Part shown: positions 36,116 to 64,000 of the stretch, piece after piece | Numbering within the stretch: position 1 is the first letter of the stretch | How the letters are laid out: each line of letters begins with the position of its first letter | Source of the DNA: an uncultured delta proteobacterium | GTDB taxonomy: Bacteria; Desulfobacterota; Binatia; Binatales; Binataceae | Length of the DNA stretch: 64,000 nucleotides | Assembly: GCA_963842085.1 (NCBI GenBank) | Contig: CAWJET010000001.1 | Coordinates: 2,144,001 to 2,208,000 of the forward strand | Direction: 5' to 3' | The notes under the pieces: model-generated | What the model was told of the DNA's origin: nothing | The model's database searches: none | The model's input: the letters and a program-made list of their open reading frames with translations, nothing else | Program-made: the position numbers and the translations under genes

Positions 36116-36134
36116 GAAAAGTCCGCGATCTTTC

Positions 36135-40580: not shown

Positions 40581-40790
40581 TCGGAATCGTAACCTTGCAC
40601 ACCGTACCTTGACCCAATTCCGACTCGATCGCTATCTTCCCGCCGTTTAGTTCGATCGCCCGCATCGCGAACGGCAGGCCGAGCCCACTCCCGCCGGCTT
40701 TGGTGGTGAAATACAAGTCGAAGATCCGGTCCAGCTGCTCCTTGCTCATGCCCGGACCGCGGTCGGCGATTGTGACTTCGACTTCTCGGC
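40534..40790 (-). pseudogene. Histidine kinase HATPase C-terminal remnant
   Basis: IADRGPGM..IFDLYFTTKAGGSGLGL..GQGT; no upstream kinase body. Confidence 0.8.
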
Positions 40791-40843
40791 CAGCGTGCTC
40801 AACTCACCGGTCCCCGGCTCACAGGAGGGCGCTTCCTTGTACA

Positions 40844-42229: not shown

Positions 42230-42519
42230 CAAGCCGCTTTGGCTTTCATCAACCGGTTTATCGCCGGGGCGAGTGGTGGTTCGGATTCGCAGTAGTCCTG
42301 CCATGTTGTAGGCGGGGCGATGAGGCTGGCGCGTCGCGTCAAGCGGGTCTCGGCGAAATCCAGGCGCGGATAAAACGCGTAAACCGAATCCAGCGATCCG
42401 CTTCGAAGACCGCCACCACCCGTGGCGTAGATGATCAACGGGATGGAAAAGAGCACCCTGTGGTTCCCAGGATTCCACAATCATTACATGTCAGCCGAGA
42501 CTATTTGTATGACGCTAAA

Positions 42520-48206: not shown

Positions 48207-48614
48207 CTATCTTCGGTTGCCGCCCGTCCGCTCTGGCTGGAGATCGAGCAGCATGTACCCTGGGAGGTTCGCGGCGCGAAGCGTCGCGCGCACCGCGCCA
48301 GGCAGGTGTGCCTCGGCGGTCTTGAAGTCCGCCACGCGGGGGTTCAACACGGTGAAGCGCCGGCCCATTTGCTCAATCTGGCAGCCGTGCGCCTTGACGA
48401 TATTGCGCGCCCAATCGACGTCGCGGCCGTAGGTCATGGGGACCACGAACGTCTCGTCGTGGCGGAAAGCGACCACCGGCGTATGATAGCCATGTCCGCT
48501 CCTTCGGCCGACATGGTGCACCACGGCCAACGGCGGCATCACCCGCGCAAGCGGGCCCAGGATGCGGTTGGTGCACACTCGGTTTATGCGTCGCATGAAG
48601 CGCGGGATGTGCAT
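48207..48614 (-). CDS. Deazaflavin (F420)-dependent nitroreductase-family protein
   Basis: HVGRRSG..YHTPV, YGRDVDWARNI. Confidence 0.85.
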   Translation of the reverse strand: MHIPRFMRRINRVCTNRILGPLARVMPPLAVVHHVGRRSGHGYHTPVVAFRHDETFVVPMTYGRDVDWARNIVKAHGCQIEQMGRRFTVLNPRVADFKTAEAHLPGAVRATLRAANLPGYMLLDLQPERTGGNRR

Positions 48615-49071
48615 CGGCGAGAGGGTATCCGTCGGCGATTCGAACCGCAATCGCTCCGCGATTCACCAATCAACGCCGTCGTTTTCAAGAACGTGTCGCT
48701 AAACGGGAATCACGCCTTTGAAGACGGTCCAAGAAAGAAAGAGTCTCCTCACGGTAAAATCTGTTGGGTCCTCCGTCAAACTGGCTCTCAGTCGCGAGTC
48801 CGGCCTCTAACCAGCTCATTGATTTGGCGGCAGATCAGAATTGGACTGCCACCGATGCACGTGCCCGTCTAGCCTCAACACACAAGACTATGTGACGGTT
48901 CGTGGCTGGCGACGCCTCCAAGCTGCATGGTATAGCGGCTGAGTGTGAAGCCGGGCGGCTGAGGTGCGGGTCGAGGCGGAGCCACCCGGTTTGGGATGCA
49001 GCGACGCCCGGCGGCGCCGGTATCGCGTTCGACGGGCCGGGCCGCAGGGCGATTTGAGCGCGGAGGCAATA

Positions 49072-49482
49072 ATGGCAGCGCAAATAACTCACATTGGCAT
49101 CGTGGTTCGCGATCTCGATGCGGCCGTGAAGCTCTGGTCGGAGAATTTTGGCATGAAAGAGTTTCGGCGGATGGATATCGCGGCCGAGGGAATTCGGAGC
49201 GCCTTTCTTTCGCCGCAGGGAACGCCCGACGAGATGCACATCGAGCTGATGGAGCCCACCGACAAGGCGGACCTGAGCAACGCGGTGGCGCGCAGACTGG
49301 CTCAGGCAGGCGAGGGCTTCTACCATCTCGCGCTGCGGGTCGACGATGTCGAGGGAACCGGAAAGACGCTCGCCGGCAAGGGCCTTACGGTGATCGAGCG
49401 TGCGCCGGTCGCGGAAGGAGCTAAGCTTCGCTGGGTGGTGCACCCGAAGTCGTCGAGCGGCGTGCTGGTAGAGCTGATCTGA
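49072..49482 (+). CDS. VOC-family protein (methylmalonyl-CoA epimerase-like)
   Basis: HIGIVVRDLDAA, IELMEP, GEGFYHLA, HPKSSSGVLVEL. Confidence 0.85.
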   Translation: MAAQITHIGIVVRDLDAAVKLWSENFGMKEFRRMDIAAEGIRSAFLSPQGTPDEMHIELMEPTDKADLSNAVARRLAQAGEGFYHLALRVDDVEGTGKTLAGKGLTVIERAPVAEGAKLRWVVHPKSSSGVLVELI

Positions 49483-49632
49483 TGGTTGGGACAAACGTAA
49501 AACCGCTTCGCTCTGCGCGCCGATGCGCGATCTATCAGAGCCCGCTTAACTCGTCCTTGTAGTTACCGGTATCCGAGTCGGCCGCGTTTGGTTCGCCTCA
49601 CTCGGCAATGATTGGCTGGTATAGGGGGTAAC

Positions 49633-50688
49633 ATGAAAGTCAGCATCGGGATCGGCGGCGCCGCGTCGGGCCGCAAGCGCGACTTCGACGAACAAGTCGA
49701 CTATGTCGTCGAAGCGGAAAAGCTCGGGGTGCATGCGGTCTGGACCGCCGAGGCATGGGGTCAGGACGCGATTTCGCCGCTCGCCTATATCGCCGCGCGC
49801 ACAAGCCGGATCCGGCTCGGCACCGGCATCATGCAGATCAGCGCGCGTGTGCCGGTGATGACCGCGATGACAGCGCTGACGATGGCCGCAATCAGCAACG
49901 ATCGCTTCATCCTCGGCCTCGGTACGAGCGGTCCGCAGGTCGTCGAAGGGCTGCACGGCCGGCCGTTCAAGGTGCCTCTCACGCGGATGAAAGAAACGGT
50001 AGAGATCATCAAACTGGCGTTTGCCGGCGAAAAGATCGAATACCACGGTAAGTATCACGAACTGCCGCTGCCGGGCGGACAGGGCAAGGCGCTACGGTTG
50101 TCACAACCCGCTAATCCGAACATTCCGATTTATCTCGCGACGCTCGGACCTCATGCGTTGGAATACACCGGTGCTGCGGCTGATGGTTGGCTCGGCACGT
50201 CGTTTACGCCGGAACACGCCGCTGCGCACCTCGACTATCTGCGCCGCGGCGCTGAATCGGCCGGGCGCAGCCTGGCCGACATCGACATTCAGGTCGGCGG
50301 CACGGTCGCGTTCGGCGACGATCTGGACGCGCTGGTGGAACCTTTGAAGCCCGCGATGGCGTTTACGCTCGGTGCGATGGGTTCAGCGACAACGAATTTC
50401 TACAACGATGCATTCAAACGGGGTGGATGGGAGGCGGCCGCGCGCGAAGTGCAGAGTCTCTGGGTCGCCGGAAAGCGTCCCGAAGCGATCGCCAAGGTAC
50501 CGCCCGAGATGGTGATCCAGGCGAATCTGCTGGGTGACACCGAGATGGTGCGCAATCGCATCCGGGCCTACAAGGCCGCCGGTGTCACGACGCTGCGCGT
50601 CGCTCCCGAAGGGCGCGATCTCGCGCAAAAACTCACCACGCTTGGGCGCGTCATGGAGCTGGTGCGCGCGGTCAACTCGGAAGGTTAA
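49633..50688 (+). CDS. LLM-class, probably F420-dependent, oxidoreductase
   Basis: AEAWGQDA, LGTGIMQ, LGLGTSGPQVVEGLHG, ADGW. Confidence 0.9.
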   Translation: MKVSIGIGGAASGRKRDFDEQVDYVVEAEKLGVHAVWTAEAWGQDAISPLAYIAARTSRIRLGTGIMQISARVPVMTAMTALTMAAISNDRFILGLGTSGPQVVEGLHGRPFKVPLTRMKETVEIIKLAFAGEKIEYHGKYHELPLPGGQGKALRLSQPANPNIPIYLATLGPHALEYTGAAADGWLGTSFTPEHAAAHLDYLRRGAESAGRSLADIDIQVGGTVAFGDDLDALVEPLKPAMAFTLGAMGSATTNFYNDAFKRGGWEAAAREVQSLWVAGKRPEAIAKVPPEMVIQANLLGDTEMVRNRIRAYKAAGVTTLRVAPEGRDLAQKLTTLGRVMELVRAVNSEG

Positions 50689-50896: not shown

Positions 50897-51010
50897 GCGG
50901 ACGTGATGGCGGTCAGCAGGTTGATTGCTCCGGAATATGGCCCATCCATCTGGATCATTCCAAAAATGTCAAAACGCGGGATCGGCAATCCAATCGAACG
51001 GAAGACTTCA

Positions 51011-51240
51011 ATGGCGCGAGCGGTCTCCAGAGTGTTGCGGACCAGCAGGTCCTTTCTCTGACCACGATCGGGCGTACGACGGGTTTGCCGCGCGAGATCG
51101 AGATTTGGTTCGTAGTCTGCCACGAGCGTTTCTACTTGTTCGCCGAACCGGGTGAAGCCGCGGGATGGGTCAAGAACATCAGGCCCAATCCCAAAGTAAC
51201 GGTCCGGATCGGGGAACGGAACGACGACGGCGTACACTAG
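51011..51240 (+). pseudogene. Truncated deazaflavin-dependent nitroreductase
   Basis: LTTIGRTTGLPREIEIWF...WVKNIRPNPKVTVRIG, out of frame with the ATG and truncated. Confidence 0.7.
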
Positions 51241-51329
51241 TTCACCGAGCCCGATGGGCCGCGGAGAGCTGCGGCGAAGATGATCGATTGCCATGGAGCC
51301 TGTAGAAGTGCTGACAGAGCCAACGAACG

Positions 51330-51537
51330 AGGTCTGGCTCTACCGAGCTTGGCCGCACTGCCTGAAGGTGATGGTGCTGGTCAAACCGGCAACCGTGGTC
51401 CACTGGCACCGGCAAGGATTCCGCAGATACTCCATCTGTCGCTCAACAAAGACTGCCCGGATGCTCGCCCCATCCAACCGCCGAACCGCGGCAAGGTGAT
51501 CGCGATTGCGCAAGTCGGCGGGCTTCACCATCGCTAG
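51330..51537 (+). mobile_element. Internally deleted integrase-core (rve) transposase relic
   Basis: LVKPATVVHWHRQGFR joined to HLSLNKDCP...VGGLHHR. Confidence 0.7.
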
Positions 51538-51810
51538 GGAAGCTTCTCGCCGCCTGATCCTCTTTTGAAGGCAGCGCAATCTCGAATAGTCGCCTCTGTG
51601 TGGCGGGCTATGCCATCGCGTGCCGAATCCCGATGGCGAACGCCTACGGTACTCGCCGGAGCCCACGAATCTCACACGAGGTGGAGTTTTGCGCAGCCAC
51701 AAGAGAAATCCCCTCGGAGATGTTATCCAGCGCCTCCCCGGGGCGGCGGATCAAGTCCCGCCGGACTCTACTTATGATCTGATGGGCGTCGAGGAGCAGA
51801 CCAGCATTGG

Positions 51811-52416
51811 CTACTTTGGGGCCTGCTCTAGTGTCCAGACGACATGCCCCGCAGTGGCAATGTCGATATCGACGTGCTTAGCGACGGTGAAGAAGAGAAC
51901 GCTGGGATCTTCCAAACCCCATTCGACGTAAGGCACTGAGAAATGTGATTTCGCCACCAGGCTGTCTCCTTCGAGCCGCCCCTGAACCTCCATAACGATT
52001 TGGTGTCCCGCCCCGTGAAGCGTCAGGACTCCTTGCAGCCTTGCTTGAAACTGACCGTCTTTCTCCAACTGACCGGTAATGCGCTCGGGCGTGAGAGTGA
52101 TTTCGGGATACTTTTGAACTTCGAGAACGCTGTCCTTCATCCGGCGATCACGCGCGCCGATGCCGCTGTCACCGCTCCTCGCATCGACGATGATCGAGCC
52201 GCTGGCTGCTCCGGTACGTGGATCGGCTTTGATCATTCCATGCTCAAGCTTGAATGTCCCGTGTGTAGTATGGAGCGCGCCCGGCAAGCGAAACTCAATC
52301 AGTGTTTTTGACGGGTCTAGTTCCAGCGTTCCGGACCGCAATTCCGCTGCTGCAGCCTGATACGCAAAGGCGGCCGTGGCGAGCACGAATGCGAAAGCGC
52401 GAATGCTAGATGACAT
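51811..52416 (-). CDS. YceI-family lipid/quinone-binding protein
   Basis: Signal peptide; HTTHGTF, SGIGARDRRM, YPEI, GVLTLHG. Confidence 0.88.
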   Translation of the reverse strand: MSSSIRAFAFVLATAAFAYQAAAAELRSGTLELDPSKTLIEFRLPGALHTTHGTFKLEHGMIKADPRTGAASGSIIVDARSGDSGIGARDRRMKDSVLEVQKYPEITLTPERITGQLEKDGQFQARLQGVLTLHGAGHQIVMEVQGRLEGDSLVAKSHFSVPYVEWGLEDPSVLFFTVAKHVDIDIATAGHVVWTLEQAPK

Positions 52417-53779
52417 TTATGACGCGGCGCGCCATGCCCAGAGCTTCGGTCCAGAAGCCGGTTGAGGCATGCATCAACTCGACGGTCGATTCCATCGCGT
52501 CAACGAACTGGTCCAACTGCAATTCGCTTATCACCAGCGCAGGCGCGACCTTCAGTACCATAAAGTTGTTCCCGCAGATTTGACTGTAAATCGCCTTGTC
52601 GCGGAAAAGCCGCATCACCAGCACCTGTCCGAACATCGCAGGATGAATTCTCGAGAATGCTTCGAACAGAATTCTGAGGCGAATTTTTTTTGGCGGACGG
52701 AACTCGATGCCGGACATCATTCCGAGTCCCCGGATCTCCTTGATCATGTCGTAGTGCGAGAGGCGCGACGTCAACTTCTCGCGCAGTTGTCGTCCTAGTC
52801 GCTCGCCGCGTTCGCCCAGGTTGCCATCCGCGAGCACGTCCATCGTGGCAAGTCCGGCACGCATCGATAGGCTGTTCTCGCTATAGGTCGATGTGTGAAT
52901 GATCGAGCGCTTGAACGAAGTGTAGACGGAATTATAGACCGCATCAGACATCAGCACGGCCCCTGAAGGAACGAGTCCGCCGCTGATTGCCTTGGCCAGG
53001 ATCACCATGTCCGGTTCGACCCCGAAGTGATGCGCCGCGAGAAACGGCCCGGTGCGATACATGCCGGTTTGTACTTCATCGAGGACGAACAGCGTGCCGT
53101 AGCGCCGACATAGCGACTGTGCTTGTTCCAGATAGTTTGGTGGTGGAATCAACACTCCAGCTTCAGCCTGAATCGGTTCTACGACATACGCCGCGAACTT
53201 TCTCGACGACAGCGGCTTCTCGAGCCGCACCAGATCGCCAAATGGAACCGCTTTAGTCTCGGGAAGCAGCGGGCCGAATTCCGCCGTCCAGAAAGGATTG
53301 TCCATCAGCGACAGCGCACCGCAGGTAAGTCCGTGAAAGCCACCGCCGGCATACAAGATGCCGGCGCGACTGGTGTGCGCGCGAGCAAACTTGATAGCGG
53401 CTTCGACGCCTTCGCTTCCGGAACAGCAAAAAAACGCTTTCGACAGTCTTCCGCCACCCTGTGTGCATAGCCGCTCAGCCAGCTCACCGGCCAACTCCGG
53501 CACGTGACCTTGCAGCATCGCCGGTCCGTTGCGATCGAGTTCCGCCTTGATCGCGCGCACTACCCCAGGATGATTGTGGCCTACGTTATGAACGCAGTAG
53601 CCGGAGTTGAAATCGAGAATGCGCCGTCCATCTTCAGTGAAAAGTTCAGAGCCGAGGCAGCTCGTGTAATGCACATTCATCCCGAGTACATCGAGTAGCC
53701 GCACCCACTGCGGATTGACGTATTTCTCATACAGCGGCTGCTGTGCGGATGAGTCTTTTGCCTCTGACATCAGGTTCAT
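52406..53779 (-). CDS. Class III PLP aminotransferase (HpnO-like)
   Basis: GHNHP, SGSEGVEAAIK, FHGLT, EPIQAEAG, DEVQTG, AKAISGG. Confidence 0.88.
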   Translation of the reverse strand: MNLMSEAKDSSAQQPLYEKYVNPQWVRLLDVLGMNVHYTSCLGSELFTEDGRRILDFNSGYCVHNVGHNHPGVVRAIKAELDRNGPAMLQGHVPELAGELAERLCTQGGGRLSKAFFCCSGSEGVEAAIKFARAHTSRAGILYAGGGFHGLTCGALSLMDNPFWTAEFGPLLPETKAVPFGDLVRLEKPLSSRKFAAYVVEPIQAEAGVLIPPPNYLEQAQSLCRRYGTLFVLDEVQTGMYRTGPFLAAHHFGVEPDMVILAKAISGGLVPSGAVLMSDAVYNSVYTSFKRSIIHTSTYSENSLSMRAGLATMDVLADGNLGERGERLGRQLREKLTSRLSHYDMIKEIRGLGMMSGIEFRPPKKIRLRILFEAFSRIHPAMFGQVLVMRLFRDKAIYSQICGNNFMVLKVAPALVISELQLDQFVDAMESTVELMHASTGFWTEALGMARRVINVI

Positions 53780-53817
53780 TGTCTTCTCACCTGGAACCTT
53801 TTATTTCGTGTCGCGAG

Positions 53818-54270
53818 TCAATGCGCAGGCGCTGCCGGCGCCGAAGCCCACTGCAGGAGCGCCTGCTTCTGGTCGTCGGTTAAGCGCGCCGAATGATCGA
53901 GCGCCGTGTAATCTCCCGGAGGCATCGAGCCGGCGCTGACCGACTGTTCGATCTTCTTCAGCGCGTCCGTTTTTTTCTGCGCATCGTAAGCTTGCCAATC
54001 GGAAAAATTCAGCACCCCTCGCGCGGAGTTAGAGGCTAGATAGGTCGGCGAGACAGCCGCATACCATGGGGCGCTTCCGCCGGTCGAGTGGCACTGGTAA
54101 CACGAGCTTTCAAGGATCGCGTTCACTTGCGGGTCGGTACTAACTTCTTTCGTGGAACTCGGAGCTGTGGTCCCGGGCGTGGACGTCTGCTGAGAGCTTG
54201 AACAGCCCGCGATCAAGAGACCTAGACCTAGAAACCATGCCGTCGGAAGTAGAATTTTCAACATTAACAC
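53818..54270 (-). CDS. Monoheme c-type (Haem_bd-like) lipoprotein
   Basis: IAGC lipobox; SCYQCHS, PWYA, LNFSDW, MPP. Confidence 0.85.
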   Translation of the reverse strand: MLMLKILLPTAWFLGLGLLIAGCSSSQQTSTPGTTAPSSTKEVSTDPQVNAILESSCYQCHSTGGSAPWYAAVSPTYLASNSARGVLNFSDWQAYDAQKKTDALKKIEQSVSAGSMPPGDYTALDHSARLTDDQKQALLQWASAPAAPAH

Positions 54271-54275
54271 GCCTT

Positions 54276-55442
54276 CTAGTCATCGAGACTCACGAAACGG
54301 ATAAGTCCTGCGCCGAGGAAGATGATCCCAATACCCATCGTTGCCGCCAATGGCCGCAAGCTCGCGGACGGCGGCTGGTTGCGAATCATCAGATCGTTGA
54401 AAGCCTGCATGGTCCAGGTCGTCGGCATCCATCGAGCGAGGTCGCGCATCCATCCGGGCTCGAAGTCCAACGGCCACCAGCATCCGCCGATGGCCGCCAT
54501 CGCCATGCTGATGGTTACGCCCAGTGGCATGACCGAATCATGAGCGCTCGCGATAGACGCGACCACGAGTCCCAACGCCGCGGCCGCGAACGAAATCCCT
54601 ATCGTCGGTATGATCAACGCGACGGGGTTGCGTCCCAGCGTGATTCCGAACAACGCCCATCCGACGGCGAACAGCAACACCATTTGCACGATCCCCACTA
54701 TGAAACGCGCGAATAACTTCCCTAACAGCAAACCTGTAAGCGGCGCGCCACTGACCTGAAGGCGCTTTAAGGTCCCCCAATCGCGCTCGTCGAAGAGCGT
54801 CAGTGCGATTCCGAGCATCATGCCAATCAGCAGAAACGTAACGCCGAATCCCGGGACGTATTGGTCGAACGCATTTACAGTTACGGCCTCGCCCTCGATC
54901 GCGGGATACTCGACAAATCCGAGATCGCCCGGGAGCGTGAGCGGTTGCGGCGCTCCGAAAGACTCGATCTGCGTTTGCGCCGACATCCGTGCTTGTTCGG
55001 TAACTCTTCGGCACAGCTCGTCGAGACGAAGCTCGAGCGCGTTGACCTCTACGCGCCTGACGGGATCCACGAAAAGAACAATCCGAGGCTCGCTGCCCGC
55101 GGTGACCGCCGTACTGGTTCCCGCCGGAATCACCATCGCAATGGGTGTCCGATCGCGTCGATTTACGAGGCGTCGCGCTTCGTCGGGGTCATCAAGCATT
55201 TCCAAATTGACGGCGCGCTCGTTGCGCAAAGCCTCAATTATTCCATCGGCGACTTTTCCGTGATCCAGGTTAACCACGGGCAGCCGAAACGAATTCGCGG
55301 CGCCGCCGTACAGACTGCCGAGCGAGTATCCCGCGACGGTGATGATCACAACCGGCGCGAACAGCAGCATGAACAGCACGATCGGGTCCTTGACCAGGAG
55401 CCGCGCCTCGTTCTGCGTGGTGAACCAGATTGCTCGAAACAT
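54276..55442 (-). CDS. ABC-2 exporter permease
   Basis: VPGF, ERDWGTLKRL, GGCWWP, PTTW. Confidence 0.88.
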   Translation of the reverse strand: MFRAIWFTTQNEARLLVKDPIVLFMLLFAPVVIITVAGYSLGSLYGGAANSFRLPVVNLDHGKVADGIIEALRNERAVNLEMLDDPDEARRLVNRRDRTPIAMVIPAGTSTAVTAGSEPRIVLFVDPVRRVEVNALELRLDELCRRVTEQARMSAQTQIESFGAPQPLTLPGDLGFVEYPAIEGEAVTVNAFDQYVPGFGVTFLLIGMMLGIALTLFDERDWGTLKRLQVSGAPLTGLLLGKLFARFIVGIVQMVLLFAVGWALFGITLGRNPVALIIPTIGISFAAAALGLVVASIASAHDSVMPLGVTISMAMAAIGGCWWPLDFEPGWMRDLARWMPTTWTMQAFNDLMIRNQPPSASLRPLAATMGIGIIFLGAGLIRFVSLDD

Positions 55443-55452
55443 CGCGATGCGC

Positions 55453-56409
55453 TCAGAGCACTTGATCGCGCAGCGTGTGGCCCGTCAGCGCGATGAACGC
55501 GTCCGACAGATTGGGGCTGTGCAGGTTGAAATCGACGACATTTACATCCAGGGTCTGAAGCCCATGGAGCACCTCGGCGACCTGCGCGAAACTGTTCATC
55601 TCGAGGATCGCTTTGCCATCACTGACGGTGGATCCTATTTCACGCACCCCGGCAAGACTGCCGAAGCGCCCGTCCGGCAACTGCCCCCGATAGGTCAGCT
55701 CAATGCGGGGGCGGCTGCCTCCGAGCGATATCACCTTCTCGAGGTCGCCTTCGGCGATTAGTTTGCCGCGATCGATCAGCAGCACGCGATCGCAAATGCG
55801 TTCCGCCTCCTCCATATAATGGGTGCTGTAAATCACCGCCGCGCCCGCATCGGCATAGCGCCGAATCCGCGCCAGCAACTGTTCGCGCGATTGGAGATCG
55901 ACACCGACCGTAGGTTCGTCCAACAGCAGCACAGGAGGACGATGAACAATTCCACAGGCGAGGTTGAGAAGGCGCTGCGTTCCGCCGGAGAACGCATGCA
56001 TAGGATCGTCAGCGCGATCGCTGAGGCCGACCTCCTCGAGCGCGCGCCTGCAGTATTCCACGGCTTGGTCGCGCGAGAGCCCCTGCATACGGGCGAAATG
56101 CCATACGTTTTGCGCGGCGCTTAGCGTCGGGTAGAGCGCGAGCGATTGCGGCACCAGCCCGAGCATGCGTCCCAGCCCGCGCGGGTCGGATTTTGGCGGC
56201 TGGCCATTGATGAGAACACGACCGCTATCGGGTCTAAGTAGAGTCGCAAGAATCGACAGCGTTGTGGTCTTGCCCGCGCCGTTGGGTCCCAGCAAGCCCG
56301 CGATTTCACCGGGCCTCACTGCAATGCTGACGCCGTCGAGCGCGCGGCGCGCGCCGTAGGTCTTTGAAATCTCGATCGCTTCGAGGATTGGCGCCCCAGC
56401 TGGATTCAT
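55453..56409 (-). CDS. ABC exporter ATP-binding protein
   Basis: GPNGAGKTT, FSGG, LLLDEPTVGVD, STHYMEEAE. Confidence 0.92.
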   Translation of the reverse strand: MNPAGAPILEAIEISKTYGARRALDGVSIAVRPGEIAGLLGPNGAGKTTTLSILATLLRPDSGRVLINGQPPKSDPRGLGRMLGLVPQSLALYPTLSAAQNVWHFARMQGLSRDQAVEYCRRALEEVGLSDRADDPMHAFSGGTQRLLNLACGIVHRPPVLLLDEPTVGVDLQSREQLLARIRRYADAGAAVIYSTHYMEEAERICDRVLLIDRGKLIAEGDLEKVISLGGSRPRIELTYRGQLPDGRFGSLAGVREIGSTVSDGKAILEMNSFAQVAEVLHGLQTLDVNVVDFNLHSPNLSDAFIALTGHTLRDQVL

Positions 56410-56416
56410 TTTGGTA

Positions 56417-57568
56417 TTACGCAGCGGATACCATCATCCGCATGGCGCCGCTCATCAGCGCGCTGAATGCCCCGGGGTATCGCATCAGTGAGTTGATTAT
56501 TGTTCGCCGGGCGCGAGGATGACGCGCGACCATCAGCAGGCCGCTGGTGACGAACCAGTAACCGCGATAGACGCGGCGCGCCTCGCGTTCGTAGGCTTGC
56601 ATACTCTCCCGCGAGGCCCCGCGCTTCAGAATCTCAGGCAGATGTTTGCCGAGTATCAACGCCGAGTTGAACGCGATCGACAGCCCGTCGCCGGAAATCG
56701 AATCGACGAATCCCGCCGCGTCGCCGACCAGCACCACGCGATGGCCGTTGCGACGCTTCGCGGCGCGCGCCATCGGCCCGGCGCCCCGCACCGTTGAAAT
56801 CGTCGGCGCGTTCCCGAGCCGCGCCAATAGAGCCGGGAAGCGGCTCGAGAGGACTGGTATCTTCGGCTGCTCGATCTCTCCGTCTTCCCAGACAAAATTG
56901 ATTCCGACGCTTTCGTCGGAAACCGGAGTCACCACCGCTTCGCCCTTGTCGTCGACATAGACCTCGACGAAGTCGGTCCACGGGCGAATTCTGTAATGCT
57001 GACGAAGCGCGAACCGGCGCCGCGAGCTCGGAGCCGCCTCGAGACCGGACGCCTTTCGGAGCGACGAGTGGAGCCCGTCGGCCGCGACGATTAACCGGCC
57101 GAATACTTCCCCTTCGGTCGTGTACACCACCGCCTCGGTCGGGTTCGCCTTGAAGCCAATGACTGAACATCGATTACGCAACACCGCGCCGAGTTCCTCT
57201 GCGCGCCGAGCCAGCGCCTCGACCAGCACGGTGCGTCTGATGCCAATCCCCTGCGACGGCATCAACGCTGACGCAGCAGAACCGTCTTCCTGGACGAAGC
57301 GAATTCCGGCGAACGGATAGGAGGTCGAGCGATCGAAACGGTCAGCGATTCCAAGGCGCTCGAGAGCTTTCACACCCGGCGGCAGCACGCCTTCGCCGCA
57401 TGCCTTATCCGGCGGAAATTCGTGGCGCTCGACGACTACCACGGAGAGACCCTGCTCCGCCGCGACTATCGCGACAGCGAGTCCCGCCGGTCCGCCGCCG
57501 ACCACGACGAGATCCCATATCTCGCGCGCGGGAGCCGATGCGTAGCCGGTGGCGAGAGTGCTAGCCAC
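56417..57568 (-). CDS. FAD-dependent monooxygenase/oxidoreductase
   Basis: VGGGPAG, DKACGEG, AADGLHS, LVGDAAGFVD. Confidence 0.88.
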   Translation of the reverse strand: MASTLATGYASAPAREIWDLVVVGGGPAGLAVAIVAAEQGLSVVVVERHEFPPDKACGEGVLPPGVKALERLGIADRFDRSTSYPFAGIRFVQEDGSAASALMPSQGIGIRRTVLVEALARRAEELGAVLRNRCSVIGFKANPTEAVVYTTEGEVFGRLIVAADGLHSSLRKASGLEAAPSSRRRFALRQHYRIRPWTDFVEVYVDDKGEAVVTPVSDESVGINFVWEDGEIEQPKIPVLSSRFPALLARLGNAPTISTVRGAGPMARAAKRRNGHRVVLVGDAAGFVDSISGDGLSIAFNSALILGKHLPEILKRGASRESMQAYEREARRVYRGYWFVTSGLLMVARHPRARRTIINSLMRYPGAFSALMSGAMRMMVSAA

Positions 57569-57574
57569 TCAGCG

Positions 57575-58672
57575 TCACCATTGCAGCAGCACCAACTCGC
57601 CGCAGAAGCCCGGTCCCATCGACAGCAGCATTCCGTAATCACCCGGACGAGCGACGTTCGACTCCAGAAAGTCGGCGGCCACGAACAGCACCGACGCCGA
57701 GGACAGATTTCCGATCGATGCAAGCGATTTCCACGATCGTTCGAGGCTGCACCGTGGTATTTCGAGCGCCTCCTGCATCGCTTGCAGCACTTTCGGACCG
57801 CCCGTGTGAGCGATCCAGTGCTTGATATCGCGTCGCGATAGGCCGCGCTCGTCGAGAAACGAATCCGCGCCCTGCCGCAGTTTATTTCGCACGAGGTCCG
57901 GCACGCCTGCTGAGAGCACGATCTCGAAACCGGTCTCGCCGACGTGCCAGCCCATCATCCGCTCGGTGTCGTGAAAGAACATCGATTTTGACGCGACGAC
58001 CTTGGGCCGGCGAGGTCCGCCGTCTATCGCGCCGCCGCTTACAACAACCGCCGCAGCCCCATCTGCAAACAATCCAGACGCGATGATGTTCGCAATCGAC
58101 TGATCCTTCAGCTGCAGCGTCAGCGAACAGAGTTCGACTGAAACAAGCAGCGCCGTATGGCTCGGGAAACCACGCAGGTAGTCCGCAGCTCGCGCCAGTC
58201 CGGCAGCCCCGCCGACGCAACCGAGACCGAAGATGGGAGTTCGCTTTATGTCGCCGCGCATCGACAGTCGATTCACGAGTTTGGCGTCGATGCTCGGCGA
58301 TGCGATGCCCGTTACGGTAGTGAAAAAAATGTGGTCAACGTCTGCCGGCGACAGGCCTGCGCGCGCGAGCGCCGATAACGCCGCCTCTTCGCCGAGCTCG
58401 GCCGCGCGCTCCACCCACTTGTCGTTCATCTTCGAGAACGAATCGAGTGCGCGGTAGTCCTCGATCGGCAGCGCAAGGTGGCGCCCGCGCACACCGACCG
58501 ATCGATGCAGGCGTTCGAACCGGTTGCGGTCTTCTATTTTACCGCTCCACTCGTTCCAAAGGGCGGTCGAGAGAATTTCCTGAGGGTAATAGTTGGCTGG
58601 AAGCGCGAGACCGATCGATCGCAATACCGGGTGCCTCGTGCCCGGGAACTGATGCGTCACGGTGTTTTCCAT
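57575..58672 (-). CDS. Type III polyketide synthase
   Basis: Cys-His-Asn triad motifs GLGCVGG, AHTGG, GNLSSAS; VELCSL; MGPGF. Confidence 0.93.
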   Translation of the reverse strand: MENTVTHQFPGTRHPVLRSIGLALPANYYPQEILSTALWNEWSGKIEDRNRFERLHRSVGVRGRHLALPIEDYRALDSFSKMNDKWVERAAELGEEAALSALARAGLSPADVDHIFFTTVTGIASPSIDAKLVNRLSMRGDIKRTPIFGLGCVGGAAGLARAADYLRGFPSHTALLVSVELCSLTLQLKDQSIANIIASGLFADGAAAVVVSGGAIDGGPRRPKVVASKSMFFHDTERMMGWHVGETGFEIVLSAGVPDLVRNKLRQGADSFLDERGLSRRDIKHWIAHTGGPKVLQAMQEALEIPRCSLERSWKSLASIGNLSSASVLFVAADFLESNVARPGDYGMLLSMGPGFCGELVLLQW

Positions 58673-59472
58673 CTCAATCGGGATTTGCGATGACGCGCTT
58701 TTTCAGCACTCCCTTTCATCTCTTCGCGGCTGATTGCCAGCGTGGTCAACAGCGGCCAGACCACGCGCGTGAGAAATACCCGGGGGCTTATTCCGGCCCC
58801 CGAACTCACCAGCCTCTGCCTATAATTCGGAATCAGACCGTCGCCGGGCATCTTGAAGTTGCAAAGGACGTAGGTCAGGTCAGCCAGGGTTTCTTCGCGG
58901 TTTTGGATTAGTTCCAACTGGAGCATGTCGCGATAGAAGCCCGCATGCGCAGCCTCGTCGCGGCCAACGTAAAGGAAGATCGCCTCCAGCACCTCGTCGC
59001 CAGCCTCGCGAGCTTTATTTCTCTGCAGGTTGTAGGCGGTAAAGGTCGCGCTCTCTTGAAGCGCGCCGTAGCAGGCCATTTGGCGAACCGTCCGAAAAGG
59101 CAATTCCCAGTGCTTTAGAAACGTCCCTGTCTCCAAAACCTCGAACTGTGCCGGCGACCGAAGACCGGAGCGGGTCAAGTATTCGCGAAAGACCAATCCA
59201 TGCCGTGATTCCTCAAAAGCCCAACAAGTTTGAAACCACGCCATCCCGAACATCGAGCGCGACAAATCGAGTCCTTGGGCACTGTAGTCCGGTACGTAGA
59301 GTTCTTCAGTGCAGAAGATCTCCACGCGGTCACCGACTTCGTCGGTTGCTTTGCTGGCGTCCAGTTTCTCCCAGGGTACGTCGTTGAAAATATTCCAGCG
59401 CCGTTTGTTCTCAGCCGTTTCGAGGAATTCGAGATAAATCCGATATGCCTGCTCGCGCATCGTTGAGGGCAT
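58657..59472 (-). CDS. Acyl-ACP desaturase-like diiron (ferritin-like) protein
   Basis: WAFEESRHG and DEAAHAGFY ExxH pairs, QE, FKMPG. Confidence 0.82.
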   Translation of the reverse strand: MPSTMREQAYRIYLEFLETAENKRRWNIFNDVPWEKLDASKATDEVGDRVEIFCTEELYVPDYSAQGLDLSRSMFGMAWFQTCWAFEESRHGLVFREYLTRSGLRSPAQFEVLETGTFLKHWELPFRTVRQMACYGALQESATFTAYNLQRNKAREAGDEVLEAIFLYVGRDEAAHAGFYRDMLQLELIQNREETLADLTYVLCNFKMPGDGLIPNYRQRLVSSGAGISPRVFLTRVVWPLLTTLAISREEMKGSAEKARHRKSRLRWKTP

Positions 59473-59633
59473 TGTCTCACTCGTCTTTCGGTCGAACGCG
59501 GTCGGCTCAATGAACTCGCCGGCATTCTGAACCGGAGGTCCCGACGGACCTTCAAGGCACGATTCACGTCGTCCGCGCTTGGAAGCGATGTTATCTGTAT
59601 GAAGCAAGGCGACAGCGACAGGTGCTCGTAGTT

Positions 59634-59649
59634 AGCAAACAGCCTGCCA
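59634..59649 (-). promoter_or_regulatory. Sigma54 promoter of the PKS operon
   Basis: TGGCAGGCTGTTTGCT, near-consensus -24/-12. Confidence 0.75.
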
Positions 59650-59721
59650 TTGCTTTACGCTAGTATCGTTGGGGCAATCGCGCGGCTTCTCATCTCGGCA
59701 CCTCGACAACGACCTCGATTA

Positions 59722-59769
59722 GTTCAAAACTTTGAACATGGGAAAAATCGAACGTACAAACTTTTGAAC
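59722..59769. promoter_or_regulatory. Candidate enhancer (UAS): paired 16-bp palindromes
   Basis: GTTCAAAACTTTGAAC (59722) and GTACAAACTTTTGAAC (59754), 32 bp apart. Confidence 0.65.
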
Positions 59770-59831
59770 GAGGAGAGTCGAGACCAGCTTCAGAACTTCA
59801 GCGATTGTTAACGAATTTTAATGTTCGATGG

Positions 59832-59847
59832 CGGCATCGCGTTTGCT
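59832..59847 (+). promoter_or_regulatory. Sigma54 promoter of the two-component operon
   Basis: CGGCATCGCGTTTGCT. Confidence 0.65.
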
Positions 59848-59885
59848 CGTTAGACCACGCGGCGATTCGAAAACCCTGAACAAAG

Positions 59886-61220
59886 ATGACCGAGAACAAG
59901 CCGAGCAAGAATCTGTGGGCGCTGAACTCCCTGGCAAGCACGATCGGTGCAGGCGACTTCGCCGCAGAAGATCACGACTCATTTCGCCGTCAGGAATTCG
60001 TCTTTGCTGCTCTCAACCTCCTGCTTATCGGCGCGCTGCTCGCGCTGCAGGTAGTCTCGAGGTTCGTCCGCGGCCGGCCTGCCGCGTCCGTAATCATCGT
60101 GCTGGCCGCCGGTTTTATGATCCAGGCAGTTTACCTGACCTGGCTTCGCACGAGGAACGCGACAATTTCTCAGGGCATACGCCGGTTGCTCACTTATTGG
60201 TCTCTCGGATTCAACTCGATACTCGCGCTGGTCCTCACCTCGTTGACCATCAGGGGAGACACTGCGTACTACGCCCTGATGCTTCTTCCCATACTCGAAG
60301 CGGCTTTCAGGCTCGGCCTTGGCGTTACGATCGCAGTGATCGCGCTTGCCGACTTCATCACCTTCATGGGCGCCTACGGCATGAAATTCGGCGAGTACAT
60401 CGAAGCGGGCGCGCTCGCAGTAATTTACAGCGTGATGGGACTGCTGGTGTGGCTGCTGGTCAACAATTTGCGCACGCGCGAGGCAAAGTTCGTGCGCAAT
60501 CTCGAGGAACTCGAGCGCACCCGTCAGCAATTGCTCTCTGAGGAGAAGCTTGCCGCTGTAGGCAGATTGTCCAGGGCAATCGCGCACGAGATCCGAAATC
60601 CTGTCGCGATGATTTCCAGCTCGTTGGCTACCGCTGCCCGGCCGGGCCACGACCAAACGGAACGTGAAGAAATGTTTTCGATCGCGGCGAAAGAAGCCGA
60701 ACGTCTCGAGCGGCTCACCACCGACTTCCTGGTCTATGCGCGTCCGCGCCCCGTGCAGATCGCGCGCGTTAACCTCGCCGATACGCTGAACTACGTCGCT
60801 ACGGTTGCCAGAGCGCATGCCGCCAATGAAGGCGTAACGATCGATGTCGCGGTCGACAGCAATCTTGAGGGGGAATTCGACGCAAACCAGATGTATCAGG
60901 CGCTGCTGAACCTGGTGCTCAATGCAATCGATGCCTGCGATCGCGGCGACCTGGTGAAACTCAACGCTCAGATGAACGGAAATGGCACGATCCGAATCGA
61001 CGTGGTCGATCCGGCCGGACCGATTCCCGCGGAAATGGTAGCGCGCATTTTTGAACCGCTGTTTACTACCAAGCAGGGCGGCAACGGTCTTGGTCTCGCG
61101 ATCGCGCGCAATATCGCACGTGCTCACGGCAGCGATATCCTGTTGAGAATCAACGAACCGCAGCGGGTATGCTTTTCCCTTGAGATACCAGCGCACTCCG
61201 GGAGCCAACCTCTCGGATAG
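59886..61220 (+). CDS. Membrane-embedded sensor histidine kinase
   Basis: About 5-6 TM helices with no periplasmic domain; AHEIRNP, NLVLNAIDA, FTTKQGGNGLGL. Confidence 0.92.
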   Translation: MTENKPSKNLWALNSLASTIGAGDFAAEDHDSFRRQEFVFAALNLLLIGALLALQVVSRFVRGRPAASVIIVLAAGFMIQAVYLTWLRTRNATISQGIRRLLTYWSLGFNSILALVLTSLTIRGDTAYYALMLLPILEAAFRLGLGVTIAVIALADFITFMGAYGMKFGEYIEAGALAVIYSVMGLLVWLLVNNLRTREAKFVRNLEELERTRQQLLSEEKLAAVGRLSRAIAHEIRNPVAMISSSLATAARPGHDQTEREEMFSIAAKEAERLERLTTDFLVYARPRPVQIARVNLADTLNYVATVARAHAANEGVTIDVAVDSNLEGEFDANQMYQALLNLVLNAIDACDRGDLVKLNAQMNGNGTIRIDVVDPAGPIPAEMVARIFEPLFTTKQGGNGLGLAIARNIARAHGSDILLRINEPQRVCFSLEIPAHSGSQPLG

Positions 61221-61230
61221 GGGACAGACT

Positions 61231-62637
61231 ATGGGCAAGATACTGGTTGCAGATGACGAGCCGCACCTGCGACGCATCCTCATCTCCAATCTCAAGCAGG
61301 AGCATCACGAAGTAGTCGAGGCTGCCGGCGTCAACCACGCGCGGGCAGCGCTTTCCGAGCACACGTTCGACGCTGTAATAACCGACCAGAAAATGGGCGA
61401 CGGCGAAGGATTGGACGTCCTCGCGGCGGCGCGGGAGAGCGATCCGACCCTGTCCGTTGTTTTTCTTACGGCGTTTGCGACCATTGAACTCGCCGTCGAG
61501 AGCATGCGCCGCGGCGCGTTTGATTTCATTACCAAGCCCTTCGTTCCTGAGGTTCTGATCGCATCCGCGACGCGCGCGATGGAGCACACGCGGCTCGTGC
61601 GTGAGAACAGCAGGCTTCGTGAAACCGTGGTGCGCCTTGAAGGTTCATCGGAGATCACAGGGCGCAGCGGGGCGATTCGCCAGCTTCGCGAAAAAATTGC
61701 GCGCGTTGCACCTACCAACGCTACCGTCCTCATCACTGGAGAAACCGGGACCGGCAAGGAGCTGGTCGCACGCGCAATCCATCGCAACAGCCTGCGTGCC
61801 GAGAAGCCCCTGGTCGCCGTCAATTGTGCGGCGTTCACCGAAACGCTTCTGGAAAGCGAGCTGTTCGGACATGAGCGGGGAGCGTTCACCGGCGCCGACC
61901 GCGCGCGCGAGGGAGTTTTCGAGGCGGCACACGAAGGCACGCTCTTTCTCGACGAGGCGGCAGAAATGTCGCTGCCGGCACAGGCCAAACTACTGCGAGT
62001 ATTGACCGACGGGCTGGTCACGCGACTCGGATCGACCAAGCCCCGCCACACCGACGTGCGACTGCTGGTTGCAACCAACCGGGATTTGAAGAGGCGCGTG
62101 CAGGAGGGCCGTTTTCGCGAGGACCTATACTACCGGCTCGCGGTAGTTCCGCTCACGGTTCCTGCCTTGCGCGATCATCGTGAAGACATACCCGAGCTTT
62201 GCGCTTACTTCCTGGCGCAAGCTGTGCGCGATCTTAAGACGCCGCCGCGCAGAATCAGCGCCGGGGCAATTCAGACACTGCTCAGCTACGATTTTCCCGG
62301 GAATATCCGTGAACTTCGTAACCTTATCGAGCGCGCGTGCATTCTCTCCGCCCAGGAGGAAATCGTTCCGGAGAACTTTCCGGTACCAACTCCTCGCAGC
62401 ACAAATGGCGTCGCGACCCGCAGCTCCGCCGAGCTCACTGCCGACCAACTCGCCGAGATGATACCTGAGACGCACAACCTTCGAGACTTTCTGGCGTCGT
62501 TGGAGAAAGCGGTGATTCAGCGTGCGTTGAAGATTACCGATGGCGCCCAGGCGGAAGTCGCGCGCCGGCTTGGAATGTCGCGAAGCGACCTTTCATACAA
62601 GCTCGGCAAACATCGCATCAAAGATGCGACCGGTTGA
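61231..62637 (+). CDS. Sigma54-dependent response regulator (NtrC family)
   Basis: REC domain ILVADDE..TD; GETGTGKE, GAFTGA, FLDE, PGNIREL, C-terminal HTH. Confidence 0.95.
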   Translation: MGKILVADDEPHLRRILISNLKQEHHEVVEAAGVNHARAALSEHTFDAVITDQKMGDGEGLDVLAAARESDPTLSVVFLTAFATIELAVESMRRGAFDFITKPFVPEVLIASATRAMEHTRLVRENSRLRETVVRLEGSSEITGRSGAIRQLREKIARVAPTNATVLITGETGTGKELVARAIHRNSLRAEKPLVAVNCAAFTETLLESELFGHERGAFTGADRAREGVFEAAHEGTLFLDEAAEMSLPAQAKLLRVLTDGLVTRLGSTKPRHTDVRLLVATNRDLKRRVQEGRFREDLYYRLAVVPLTVPALRDHREDIPELCAYFLAQAVRDLKTPPRRISAGAIQTLLSYDFPGNIRELRNLIERACILSAQEEIVPENFPVPTPRSTNGVATRSSAELTADQLAEMIPETHNLRDFLASLEKAVIQRALKITDGAQAEVARRLGMSRSDLSYKLGKHRIKDATG

Positions 62638-62669
62638 AGGCTTTGTTTGTAAGTATGCAGGAGAGTCAA

Positions 62670-63488
62670 ATGAAAACTGGATTGAAACAAATCGAAGAAA
62701 CACGCATGGTCCGGACGCTGCTCGCATCGTCCGTGCTTGCAGTCATTTTCTTTGCAACCCCGGCGCAGAGCGCGGACGTCGCCCCGTTGTCGATGAACCC
62801 GGCCGCCCAATCGGCGGCTAGCGCGCAGACTCCACCGGGCGAGGACAACCAAGGCGGCTCTTCCGATCCTTTGTCCGGTTTCAACGAGCCCATGTTCACC
62901 TTCAACCTCAAGCTCGACGATTGGGTCCTGCGCCCGGTCGCCAGCGGATACGCCGACATCGCGCCGACGCCGGTGCGCCAGAGCGTCGGCAGATTCTTCG
63001 ATAACGTCCGAGTCATCCCACGTTTTGCCAACAACCTGTTTCAGCTCAAGCTGGCCGAGGCCGGCGGCGAAGTTGCACGTTTCGGAGTCAACACGACGCT
63101 AGGAGTAGCCGGCCTGTTCGATCCCGCCGACAGTTGGTTTGGACTCAAAGAACATCCCAACGATTTCGGCCTGACTATCCGCTACTACAAGATTCCGACC
63201 GGCCCGTACGTGATGCTGCCGTTCTTTGGACCTTCGACGGTCGGCGACACGGTTGGCCTGGTAGCGGACGGCGCGATGGATCCGATCAGCTACTTCGTTC
63301 CGCTGTGGGTATCGGTCACGGTAGCCGGTGGGCGCGGCGCGGTCGAAGCGGTGAACTACCGTTCGCTGAATCTCAACCAGTTCGAGGAAGCTGATCGTTA
63401 CGCGATCGACCTATACGGCGCCGTTCAGGACGCATACCTGCAGACGCGCGACCACGACGTCAAGAAGCTCCACGAGGAACAGTGGTAG
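62670..63488 (+). CDS. mlaA: MlaA/VacJ-family phospholipid transport protein
   Basis: DPLSGFNEPMFTFN, RFGVNTTLG..GLFD, DFGLT, GPYVMLPFFGPS. Confidence 0.88.
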   Translation: MKTGLKQIEETRMVRTLLASSVLAVIFFATPAQSADVAPLSMNPAAQSAASAQTPPGEDNQGGSSDPLSGFNEPMFTFNLKLDDWVLRPVASGYADIAPTPVRQSVGRFFDNVRVIPRFANNLFQLKLAEAGGEVARFGVNTTLGVAGLFDPADSWFGLKEHPNDFGLTIRYYKIPTGPYVMLPFFGPSTVGDTVGLVADGAMDPISYFVPLWVSVTVAGGRGAVEAVNYRSLNLNQFEEADRYAIDLYGAVQDAYLQTRDHDVKKLHEEQW

Positions 63489-63535
63489 CGCAGTTTACGC
63501 GCTTTCCCGGAGAATCCCTCAAACCTGAGCGTCGG

Positions 63536-63560
63536 TGGCGGAGCGAGGGGGATTAGAAAC
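63536..63560 (-). other. Degenerate tRNA 3'-end fragment, inverted relative to tRNA-Ser
   Basis: 21/25 identity to the reverse complement of 34445-34469. Confidence 0.5.
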
Positions 63561-63746
63561 GTCGGTGTCGCGAGCATTCGAGGTTCTGCGCCGTGAGTTG
63601 GAATTCGACACAGACAGGAGAGATTCCAGCTCTAGCGTACCCTGCGTTCGAGCTTTAGGGCCTCACCGTGCATTACAAGTGGGATTTCCGCCCTCGGCAC
63701 GAGATGAGTATGACTTGCGGCCGTATCGTGAAATACGCCCCCCGAC

Positions 63747-64000
63747 CTACTCCGGTAGACCAGCTTTGCGCAGGGCTTCGAGGTGGTGGGCGAGATCTGT
63801 CTCGCGTCGGTAGTGCAGCGCCGGCAGGCAATGCTCGCGGATGGTGAACCCGGGGCTGCGCTTGATTACCTCCGCAGCGTGCACGGTCGCGCGCTCGGCA
63901 TCGCCCATCTGTGCGTAGGAGGCCGCGAGCAGCGCGTGGTGCAACTCGCCTGGCGCGGTGATGTGTCTGAGGGACTCGACCGCCTCGGCGTAACGCTTTG
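63747..64000 (-). CDS. C-terminus of a TPR-type protein (continues beyond the window)
   Basis: LAASYAQMG..A..PGFTI...LEALRKAGLPE, typical of TolB/TPR adenylate-cyclase-like proteins. Confidence 0.7.
   Translation of the reverse strand, partial: KRYAEAVESLRHITAPGELHHALLAASYAQMGDAERATVHAAEVIKRSPGFTIREHCLPALHYRRETDLAHHLEALRKAGLPE

Follow-up and report, generated by a model that had tools for sequence, protein, structure and literature searches.

Among described type III polyketide synthase (PKS) clusters, those closest to the locus considered here are srsABC of Streptomyces griseus, pkqABC of Mycobacterium smegmatis and hidABC of Cyanobium, whose trio of PKS, methyltransferase and flavin adenine dinucleotide (FAD) oxidoreductase is described as leading to methoxy-alkylbenzoquinones or hierridins (PMC9927152, PMC6836626, PMC10896814); according to the same sources, the route from alkylresorcinol to alkylbenzoquinone runs, in the characterised trios, through the methyltransferase and the hydroxylase (PMC9927152, PMC6836626). 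The locus analysed here lies in a stretch of 64,000 nucleotides (nt) from an uncultured delta proteobacterium of the family Binataceae (assembly GCA_963842085.1, contig CAWJET010000001.1, positions 2,144,001 to 2,208,000 of the forward strand), called the window hereafter. What it has in common with the three trios is a type III PKS of the alkylresorcinol/pyrone group with a presumably homologous FAD oxidoreductase behind it; unlike them, the window has no ICMT-family methyltransferase, adds an ABC-2 pump, a haem c lipoprotein, a PigE-type aminotransferase, a YceI-family protein and a sigma54 two-component system, and belongs to a Gram-negative host, so that the product can reach a periplasm. 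The locus is most likely a variation on the srs/pkq/hid clusters, an alkylresorcinol-derived quinol or quinone lipid with its export being the best reading of its content; the fuller proposal, of an inducible Binataceae operon whose type III PKS phenolic lipid would be hydroxylated, exported and handled in the periplasm, with a dedicated sigma54 switch and a redox haem protein, is put forward tentatively, with somewhat less than even confidence.

Two further clusters are instructive. The Myxococcus xanthus ftp (alkylresorcylic acid) cluster, whose gene list is given in PMC5006271, is represented in our sample by L022 and L023, both from Archangium, which among non-Binatia relatives rank next after L008-L010 in the PKS tree; their PKSs are 59-62% and their FAD proteins 46-48% identical to those of the window, but ftp-type loci carry an ICMT, an acyl carrier protein (ACP) and a fatty acyl-AMP ligase, none of which is found in the window, so that the general acyl pool would have to supply the starter here. 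The pentacistronic type III PKS operon of 'Saltatorellus ferox' shares with the window a putative lipoprotein and a lipid/isoprenoid-binding protein encoded with the PKS; it is set apart by its two methyltransferases, and its description reports no pump, aminotransferase or flavoprotein (PMC10896814). This mention, made in passing, is the nearest in print to a lipoprotein and a lipid-binding protein beside such a PKS (PMC10896814); searches of open-access papers and preprints returned no description of the present gene combination or of any Binatota type III PKS cluster, in agreement with a previous sequence-only reading of this DNA, which knew of no described cluster of such composition.

Two features are new here: divergent, conserved sigma54 promoters flanking two palindromic boxes, and a haem lipoprotein which, by its sequence, is a stand-alone copy of the haem domain proposed as quinol entry point in E. 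coli YhjA. Phenolic lipids made by type III PKSs are widespread. To our knowledge, their cell biology has been worked out in Azotobacter and a few Gram-positive bacteria only; loci of this type would provide a first candidate parts list for the export of such lipids from the Gram-negative cytoplasm and for their periplasmic handling (pump, YceI, haem protein), and the conserved sigma54 switch could be put to use as a reporter. Should the quinone reading be true, polyketide quinones would reach beyond actinobacteria into an abundant uncultured soil phylum, and YceI and the stand-alone Haem_bd proteins (3086 representatives in a profile search at E<=0.001) would gain a testable ligand.

Gene order and distribution of the locus

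According to the list of open reading frames (ORFs), eight minus-strand genes (51811 to 59607), separated by gaps of -16 to +38 nt, diverge from three plus-strand genes (59886 to 63488). Families were named with Pfam and NCBIfam scans, and the order and limits agree with the eight packed genes facing kinase, sigma54 activator and MlaA of the sequence-only reading (sizes in amino acids, aa):

51811 to 52416, minus: YceI-family protein, secreted, of a lipid-binding family, 201 aa (PF04264)
52406 to 53779, minus: class-III pyridoxal phosphate aminotransferase of the PigE C-terminal-domain type, 457 aa (PF00202)
53818 to 54270, minus: monohaem c-type lipoprotein, stand-alone Haem_bd domain, 150 aa (PF14376)
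54276 to 55442, minus: ABC-2 permease, 388 aa (PF12698 and PF01061)
55453 to 56409, minus: ABC transporter ATPase, DrrA/NodI-like, 318 aa (PF00005)
56417 to 57568, minus: FAD-dependent oxidoreductase, presumed ring hydroxylase, 383 aa (FAD_binding_3)
57575 to 58672, minus: type III PKS of the alkylresorcinol/alkylpyrone-synthase type, 365 aa (PF00195 and PF02797)
58657 to 59472 (ORF open to TTG 59607), minus: accessory diiron acyl-ACP-desaturase-like protein, about 271 aa from ATG 59472 (PF03405)
59886 to 61220, plus: histidine kinase with membrane-only sensor, 444 aa (HisKA and HATPase_c)
61180 to 62637, plus: sigma54-dependent response regulator, likely start Met at 61231 (Response_reg, Sigma54_activat, AAA_lid_14, HTH_8)
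62634 to 63488, plus: MlaA-family protein, likely start near 62706 (PF04333)

The host is a relative of Candidatus Binatus, PKS homologues of 60-93% identity bearing the names Binatus or Binataceae and the nearest locus (L001, PKS identity 94%) lying on a contig of a Candidatus Binatus metagenome-assembled genome. The absence of a methyltransferase, already remarked in the sequence-only reading, is confirmed: no ICMT or PEMT was found among the 56 window ORFs scanned, nor by tblastn with two ICMT proteins.

That the arrangement exceeds chance is evident from the recurrence of its core, partly reordered, in other species down to 67% PKS identity. A single scan of species-representative genomes with six PKS peptide patterns gave 33 related loci, a lower bound, whose neighbouring genes were assigned by tblastn with the window proteins, a rough ORF map, Pfam scans of unknowns and tblastn with ICMT. 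Nineteen loci lack an ICMT and contain pump, YceI, haem or aminotransferase genes nearby (exporter/YceI type: L001-L007, L011, L013, L015, L018-L020, L024-L026, L031-L033); ten are of the classical type, with an ICMT methyltransferase immediately behind the PKS and none of the exporter/YceI-type neighbours (L008-L010, L016, L017, L022, L023, L028-L030); the remaining four are uninformative, three being contigs shorter than 4.2 kb (L012, L014, L021) and L027 containing none of these genes. ICMT and exporter/YceI-type genes occur together in none of the 33. Within the exporter-type loci the composition is as follows:

YceI: 17 of 19, including the Terriglobia locus L026 (absent in L011 and L013)
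ABC genes: 16 of 19 (absent in L002, L015 and L026); the ATPase is accompanied by the permease in most
Full flavoprotein: 15 of 19 (truncated in L011 and L013, replaced in L031 and L032)
Haem lipoprotein: 13 of 19
Orthologous kinase/regulator: 11 of 19 (a distant sigma54-type pair in L020, L024 and L025)
Full aminotransferase: 10 of 19 (internal deletion in L006, remnant in L031)
Desaturase: 2 of 19 (L001 and L004), and 2 of 33 overall
Full MlaA: 1 of 19 (L019, with MlaC), besides the short contig L014; a 36-aa remnant in L004

In a maximum-likelihood tree of 30 PKS sequences, from which L016, L028, L031 and L032 were omitted (matches shorter than 300 residues), all exporter-type Binatia PKSs and the three short contigs form one clade (support 100/99) nested among ICMT-type relatives; methyltransferase loss and envelope-gene gain thus mark a single lineage. 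The arrangement PKS-flavoprotein-YceI is seen separately in the Terriglobia locus. Taken together, scan, tblastn and tree bear out the co-occurrence of the core genes in other genomes, on which the sequence-only reading had made itself depend.

The same distribution bears on the possibility that two unrelated units happen to be adjacent, namely the PKS-flavoprotein pair and a group of pump, haem protein, aminotransferase and YceI genes devoted to the uptake or detoxification of another lipophilic compound. It would account for L031 and L032, where pump, haem protein and YceI persist without a PKS, next to a class-I methyltransferase, a DUF2306 protein, a different FAD protein and then a cytochrome P450 (L031:5877-10788, L032:10001-17422); since both loci still contain a PKS remnant, in L032 fused to or preceding the class-I methyltransferase, which DUF2306 and the other FAD protein follow, the PKS-less state is derived. 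Moreover, the window genes overlap or are 5-38 nt apart, with a single conserved promoter ahead of the first; in L024 and L025 the aminotransferase, YceI and haem genes are placed before the PKS instead of behind it, so that the genes stay together through rearrangement; YceI adjoins the PKS-flavoprotein pair in the Terriglobia locus; and the 'Saltatorellus ferox' PKS operon itself holds a lipid/isoprenoid-binding protein and a lipoprotein (PMC10896814). We therefore give such a split little credence.

Enzymes, pump and periplasmic proteins

In the pathway that we infer, the PKS would take a long fatty acyl thioester out of the general pool and condense it with malonyl-CoA to an alkylresorcinol or alkylpyrone. 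Its best solved relative is Pks11 of M. tuberculosis (E 2e-90 over residues 20-365), followed by CylI (1.5e-54). A complete Cys-His-Asn triad is present: C152 aligns with the cysteine that is a serine in the Pks11 mutant chain 4jat, H289 stands in the conserved HxGG motif and N322 in GNxSSA.

The flavoprotein scores 131.7 bits with TIGR02032, under the cut-off of 158.8, and by sequence belongs to the geranylgeranyl-reductase family; the FAD genes of loci ordered T3PKS-ICMT-FAD (L022, L023, L029, L030) share 35-48% identity with it along at least 90% of its length. Together with the PKS family, this identity sustains the kinship with srsABC-type clusters that had been proposed from the letters of the DNA. 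The AlphaFold model (mean predicted local distance difference test, pLDDT, 85.4) finds its nearest folds in phenol and pyrrole halogenases, in the uncharacterised Cytophaga flavoprotein 3nix and in geranylgeranyl reductase, and such a predicted fold does not by itself fix the reaction. A halogenase, suggested by fold and sequence hits, was considered and provisionally set aside on two grounds: no WxWxIP motif is visible in the sequence, and an invariant K55-x-C57-G motif is present, which we take to resemble that of geranylgeranyl-reductase-type proteins. As the counterpart of SrsC, PkqC and HidB, the enzyme would hydroxylate the ring to an alkyl-hydroquinone or quinone, and the ring, there being no methyltransferase, would stay unmethylated; the role of the planctomycete oxidoreductase is itself still unproven according to PMC10896814. 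Natural drop-outs of this gene are seen in L011 (11134-11442) and L013 (11090-11467), where it is shortened to about 100-125 aa, possibly by assembly error.

In three genomes a desaturase-like diiron enzyme may modify the acyl chain first. The protein matches PF03405 at 58.3 bits (cut-off 22.7), in an alignment the diiron motifs of castor desaturase and DesA2 coincide with its putative ligands E133/H136, E185 and E218/H221, and its cluster in a protein atlas, named 'acyl-ACP desaturase family', is commonest in Binatota. The ORF probably starts at ATG 59472 and not at TTG 59607, as its first 45 codons overlap a leader conserved even in loci without desaturase. With homologues in only two of the 33 loci, the desaturase is an accessory and not the system component it had been taken for.

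The aminotransferase, whose stop codon overlaps the YceI start by 11 nt, matches PF00202 at 281 bits and contains the motifs DEVQTG and LAKAISGG. For the label HpnO-like given to it earlier the scans offer no backing: no HpnO model appears among the matches listed (25 of 69 NCBIfam), and the best match is to the C-terminal domain of PigE, the prodigiosin enzyme of Serratia (NF053554, 386 bits; best solved relative 4ppm, 1.3e-82). The likeness extends to profile positions 377-729 and beyond only, below the cut-off of 850; the window protein has the C-terminal transaminase domain alone, and PigD- and PigB-like partners are absent. Close homologues, some from Bryobacteraceae, bear generic names only. 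Where present, the enzyme would aminate a carbonyl of an intermediate; in L006 (14856-15127) it lacks residues 69-384, possibly again by assembly error.

The ABC-2 pump would transfer the lipid to the periplasmic side. Its ATPase reaches 242 bits with the drrA model TIGR01188 (cut-off 312) and its permease 41.6 bits with drrB (cut-off 223), so that the pump passes general ABC-2 family thresholds only. The permease has six hydrophobic segments with a periplasmic loop between the first and second transmembrane segments; in L004 (13232-14923), L019, L020 and L024 it is about 175 aa longer (558-577 aa vs 388 aa), the extra length being placed ahead of the conserved C-terminal membrane part.

This pump invites the thought that the phenolic lipid acts as an antibiotic or allelopathic agent, the ABC-2 genes serving both secretion and self-protection. 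DrrA and DrrB, its closest named models, are associated with daunorubicin resistance, and alkylresorcinols are called bioactive in titles and abstracts of the literature; against this stand the periplasmic YceI and the haem lipoprotein, unusual companions in resistance cassettes, and the three loci (L002, L015, L026) in which the pump is gone while biosynthetic genes stay. On balance, an antibiotic function appears improbable.

On the periplasmic side, a YceI barrel may carry the lipid. The protein matches PF04264 at 66 bits (cut-off 23.7), has an N-terminal signal-like segment as read from the sequence and is weakly similar to T. thermophilus TT1927b. The E. coli pair yceJ-yceI offers a parallel to the window: only 4 nt separate yceI from the cytochrome b561 gene yceJ, so that YceI there has as its neighbour a membrane haem protein of a quinone-reactive family.

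The haem c lipoprotein, built like the YhjA quinol-entry domain, would exchange electrons with the lipid. It carries a lipobox cysteine (Cys23) and matches PF14376 at 98.7 bits, with C57, C60, H61, M116 and W141 invariant in all 14 orthologues. Residues 19-152 of E. coli YhjA (Ccp) match the same family at 104.7 bits, and the lipoprotein aligns with YhjA residues 44-168 in such a way that CxxCH falls on CxxCH and M116 on M125; in YhjA, as PMC10301912 reports, M125 is a validated axial ligand, the N-terminal haem is His/Met-ligated with a potential of +133 mV, and this haem has been proposed as the point at which electrons enter from quinol. The difference is that in the window the domain stands alone as a lipoprotein: in Pfam it matches PF14376 only, and neither peroxidase domain, PF03150 (CCP_MauG) or PF00034, and its partner quinol would be a polyketide instead of ubiquinol or menaquinol. 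Such stand-alone forms are usual, 145 of the best 150 relatives from the Haem_bd profile search being shorter than 250 aa; among the ten longest, one is joined to a cytochrome c, one to an AhpC/TSA peroxiredoxin and one to RidA, and seven consist of Haem_bd only. A search for fused forms among longer proteins gave none out of 795 candidates, which is weak evidence, and a complex prediction for YceI (25-197), the haem protein (44-150) and haem (score 0.00) weighs neither way. The kinship with YhjA, the fusion partners and the yceJ-yceI pair favour, short of proof, a redox-active, quinol-type cargo; of the two functions suggested by the sequence-only reading, electron carrier and signal, the former thus gains some support, from the match to the quinol-entry haem domain.

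The haem protein and the transaminase may also be combined in a bolder way: the PigE-type enzyme would replace the methyltransferase, so that the quinone would bear an amino in place of a methoxy group, giving a rhodoquinone-like alkyl-aminoquinone of lower potential. Delivered by the pump to the periplasmic face, it would be used by the haem lipoprotein and the YceI carrier as an electron shuttle, its level or redox state being read by the kinase. Such a scheme fits the fact that ICMT is never found beside these genes (0 of 33), that all ten loci with a full aminotransferase also carry the haem protein, and the YhjA-type homology; rhodoquinone itself offers the parallel for an aminated polyketide quinone. 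We know of no precedent for the transamination of a quinone-type carbonyl, and rate the aminoquinone as a quite unlikely product.

A less improbable competitor, though still an unlikely one, is a structural or protective envelope lipid without redox role, made under membrane stress or in dormancy, pumped out, ferried by YceI (in some loci with MlaC or MlaA) and laid down in the outer membrane as in Azotobacter cysts. There, according to PMC4824345, alkylresorcinols replace phospholipids; a kinase with membrane segments only would suit the sensing of membrane state, and L011 and L013 retain PKS and pump with a truncated flavoprotein. MlaA or MlaC also lies beside the cluster in three arrangements: in the window, where MlaA (PF04333, 208.8 bits; a signal peptide and no lipobox cysteine) follows the regulator; in L014 (63-779), directly before the PKS; and in L019 (17441-19343), after YceI and together with MlaC. 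Yet this reading leaves no role for the haem c lipoprotein, present in 13 of the 19 exporter-type loci, or for the aminotransferase, present in ten, and 15 retain the flavoprotein, an enzyme with quinone-making relatives.

MlaA is repeatedly close to the cluster, in varying places, including a 36-aa remnant behind the regulator in L004 (5183-5290). That it is the regulator's conserved neighbour, as had been supposed, does not hold, full-length copies occurring near the cluster in two of the 33 loci and elsewhere in it; no MlaC or MlaFEDB partner was found in the part of the window examined, and the membership of MlaA in the system is doubtful.

Returning to the exported quinol or quinone lipid, several observations weigh against it. 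Among PKSs of solved structure the closest, Pks11, was deposited as an alpha-pyrone synthase. The flavoprotein shares family and fold with geranylgeranyl reductases and halogenases, so that it may instead be a reductase, and its kinship to SrsC, PkqC and HidB is by way of the FAD genes of the canonical-order loci. Not every module is obligatory: three loci have no ABC genes, 9 of 19 have no aminotransferase or a degraded one, and the flavoprotein is truncated in two. In L031 and L032 only an N-terminal PKS remnant of about 105 aa is left while sigma54 switch, pump, haem protein and YceI are retained. The haem gene is inverted within the operon, from start to stop codon, in L005 (15787-16234) and L002 (12247-12636), with no flanking inverted repeats of note in either that would explain the inversion. 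Finally, the counts come from running tblastn and a crude ORF caller on metagenome-assembled genomes. Some of these are short or frameshifted, and truncations may in part be assembly errors.

The sigma54 switch

The intergenic region between the two gene groups contains the following elements:

59634 to 59649, minus: sigma54-type -24/-12 promoter, toward the biosynthetic operon, TGGCAGGCTGTTTGCT, one mismatch to the consensus, singled out by conservation
59722 to 59737 and 59754 to 59769: two palindromic boxes, GTTCAAA-N2-TTTGWAC, presumed activator sites, centres 32 nt apart
59832 to 59847, plus: second sigma54-like -24/-12 site, toward the kinase gene, CGGCATCGCGTTTGCT, two mismatches

The operon-facing site is invariant in all eight aligned species and always precedes the first operon gene, be it the desaturase (window and L001), a 244-aa gene (L004) or the PKS (elsewhere); the core of the second site is likewise invariant in the eight (A44-G54 of the first sequence). 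Sigma54 matches are not enriched across the window (25 vs 28 expected), and it is conservation alone that, at the sequence level, singles out these two. The boxes are the only matches to their pattern in the 64-kb window, where 0.01 would be expected, and both are conserved in 8/8 aligned species; exact matches occur in eight of 35 loci, each of which has the divergent kinase-regulator pair. In 51200-64000 a search for sigma70-like promoters gave none (3.5 expected), and a terminator scan (13 vs 11.9 expected) indicated no clear operon end.

The regulator has the domains of a sigma54 activator (PF00072, PF00158 at 235 bits, PF02954), with GAFTGA at residue 234; the kinase carries its H234 within AHEIRNP. 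Residues 39-192 of the kinase comprise five or six hydrophobic segments with no sizeable loop, as foreseen for a membrane-embedded sensor, and a language-model atlas offers a PilS-type six-transmembrane domain (6TM_PilS) and MASE2 as leads only. Divergent promoters with shared boxes are the textbook layout of an enhancer-dependent promoter pair and support control by the adjacent activator, which would bind the boxes and act on the operon as well as on its own regulator genes; regulation by the neighbouring two-component system, suggested earlier from gene order, thereby gains real support. In operation, the membrane-embedded kinase would fire, the response regulator would activate the sigma54 promoter of the operon, and the second promoter would let the kinase-regulator pair amplify itself.

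This layout also speaks for the signal proposed by the sequence-only reading, in which the kinase would sense the exported lipid within the membrane as an autoinducer and raise expression of operon and kinase alike. Boxes shared between divergent sigma54 promoters make positive feedback on the kinase-regulator pair plausible, the sensor is membrane-only with PilS-like leads, and an exporter is present; but nothing links the input of the kinase to the product, and two-component systems that respond to unrelated cues are often autoregulated too. Moreover, L031 and L032 keep kinase, regulator, promoter and boxes despite the loss of the PKS, and L020, L024 and L025 employ a distant kinase-regulator pair (29-47% identity). 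The probability of an autoinducer role is accordingly judged low.

Behind the operon-facing promoter a leader of about 90 nt (59530-59630, minus strand) is conserved in eight species, whichever gene comes next. No Rfam match was found in 51000-64000 and no conserved structure in the leader (-0.86 kcal/mol, one of five predicted pairs with two-sided change), and on reading the alignment its substitutions did not look codon-like. In L004 a 244-aa gene with no Pfam match (8340-9074) lies between promoter and desaturase, its first 22 codons matching the window leader at 59542-59607.

Other genes of the window

A non-ribosomal peptide synthetase cluster occupies 37-13518, with carrier-protein (PCP), condensation (C), adenylation (A)-PCP-C-A and thioesterase modules and a phosphopantetheinyl transferase; because an IS1595-family transposase (3033-3935) comes after a partial condensation domain (2299-2910), the synthetase looks interrupted. 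On the minus strand, an AI-2E family transporter is fused with a B12-binding domain (17615-19489), and a 2936-aa ORF (20498-29308) contains GH94 supersandwich and catalytic domains and a glucoamylase-like domain, presumably in the manner of cyclic beta-1,2-glucan synthases. A LarC-like nickel-insertion protein adjoins a radical-SAM protein at 31213-33062, and 35313-42484 holds periplasmic LTXXQ and BON-domain genes and a gene resembling phospholipase D-type phospholipases or cardiolipin synthases. Closest to the operon, 1-3.6 kb beyond YceI (48207-50688), are a weak F420H2-dependent quinone-reductase-like ORF (48207-48650), a glyoxalase-fold protein and a luciferase-like monooxygenase; in the other loci these genes are not conserved beside the cluster, their matches being of 27-33% only.

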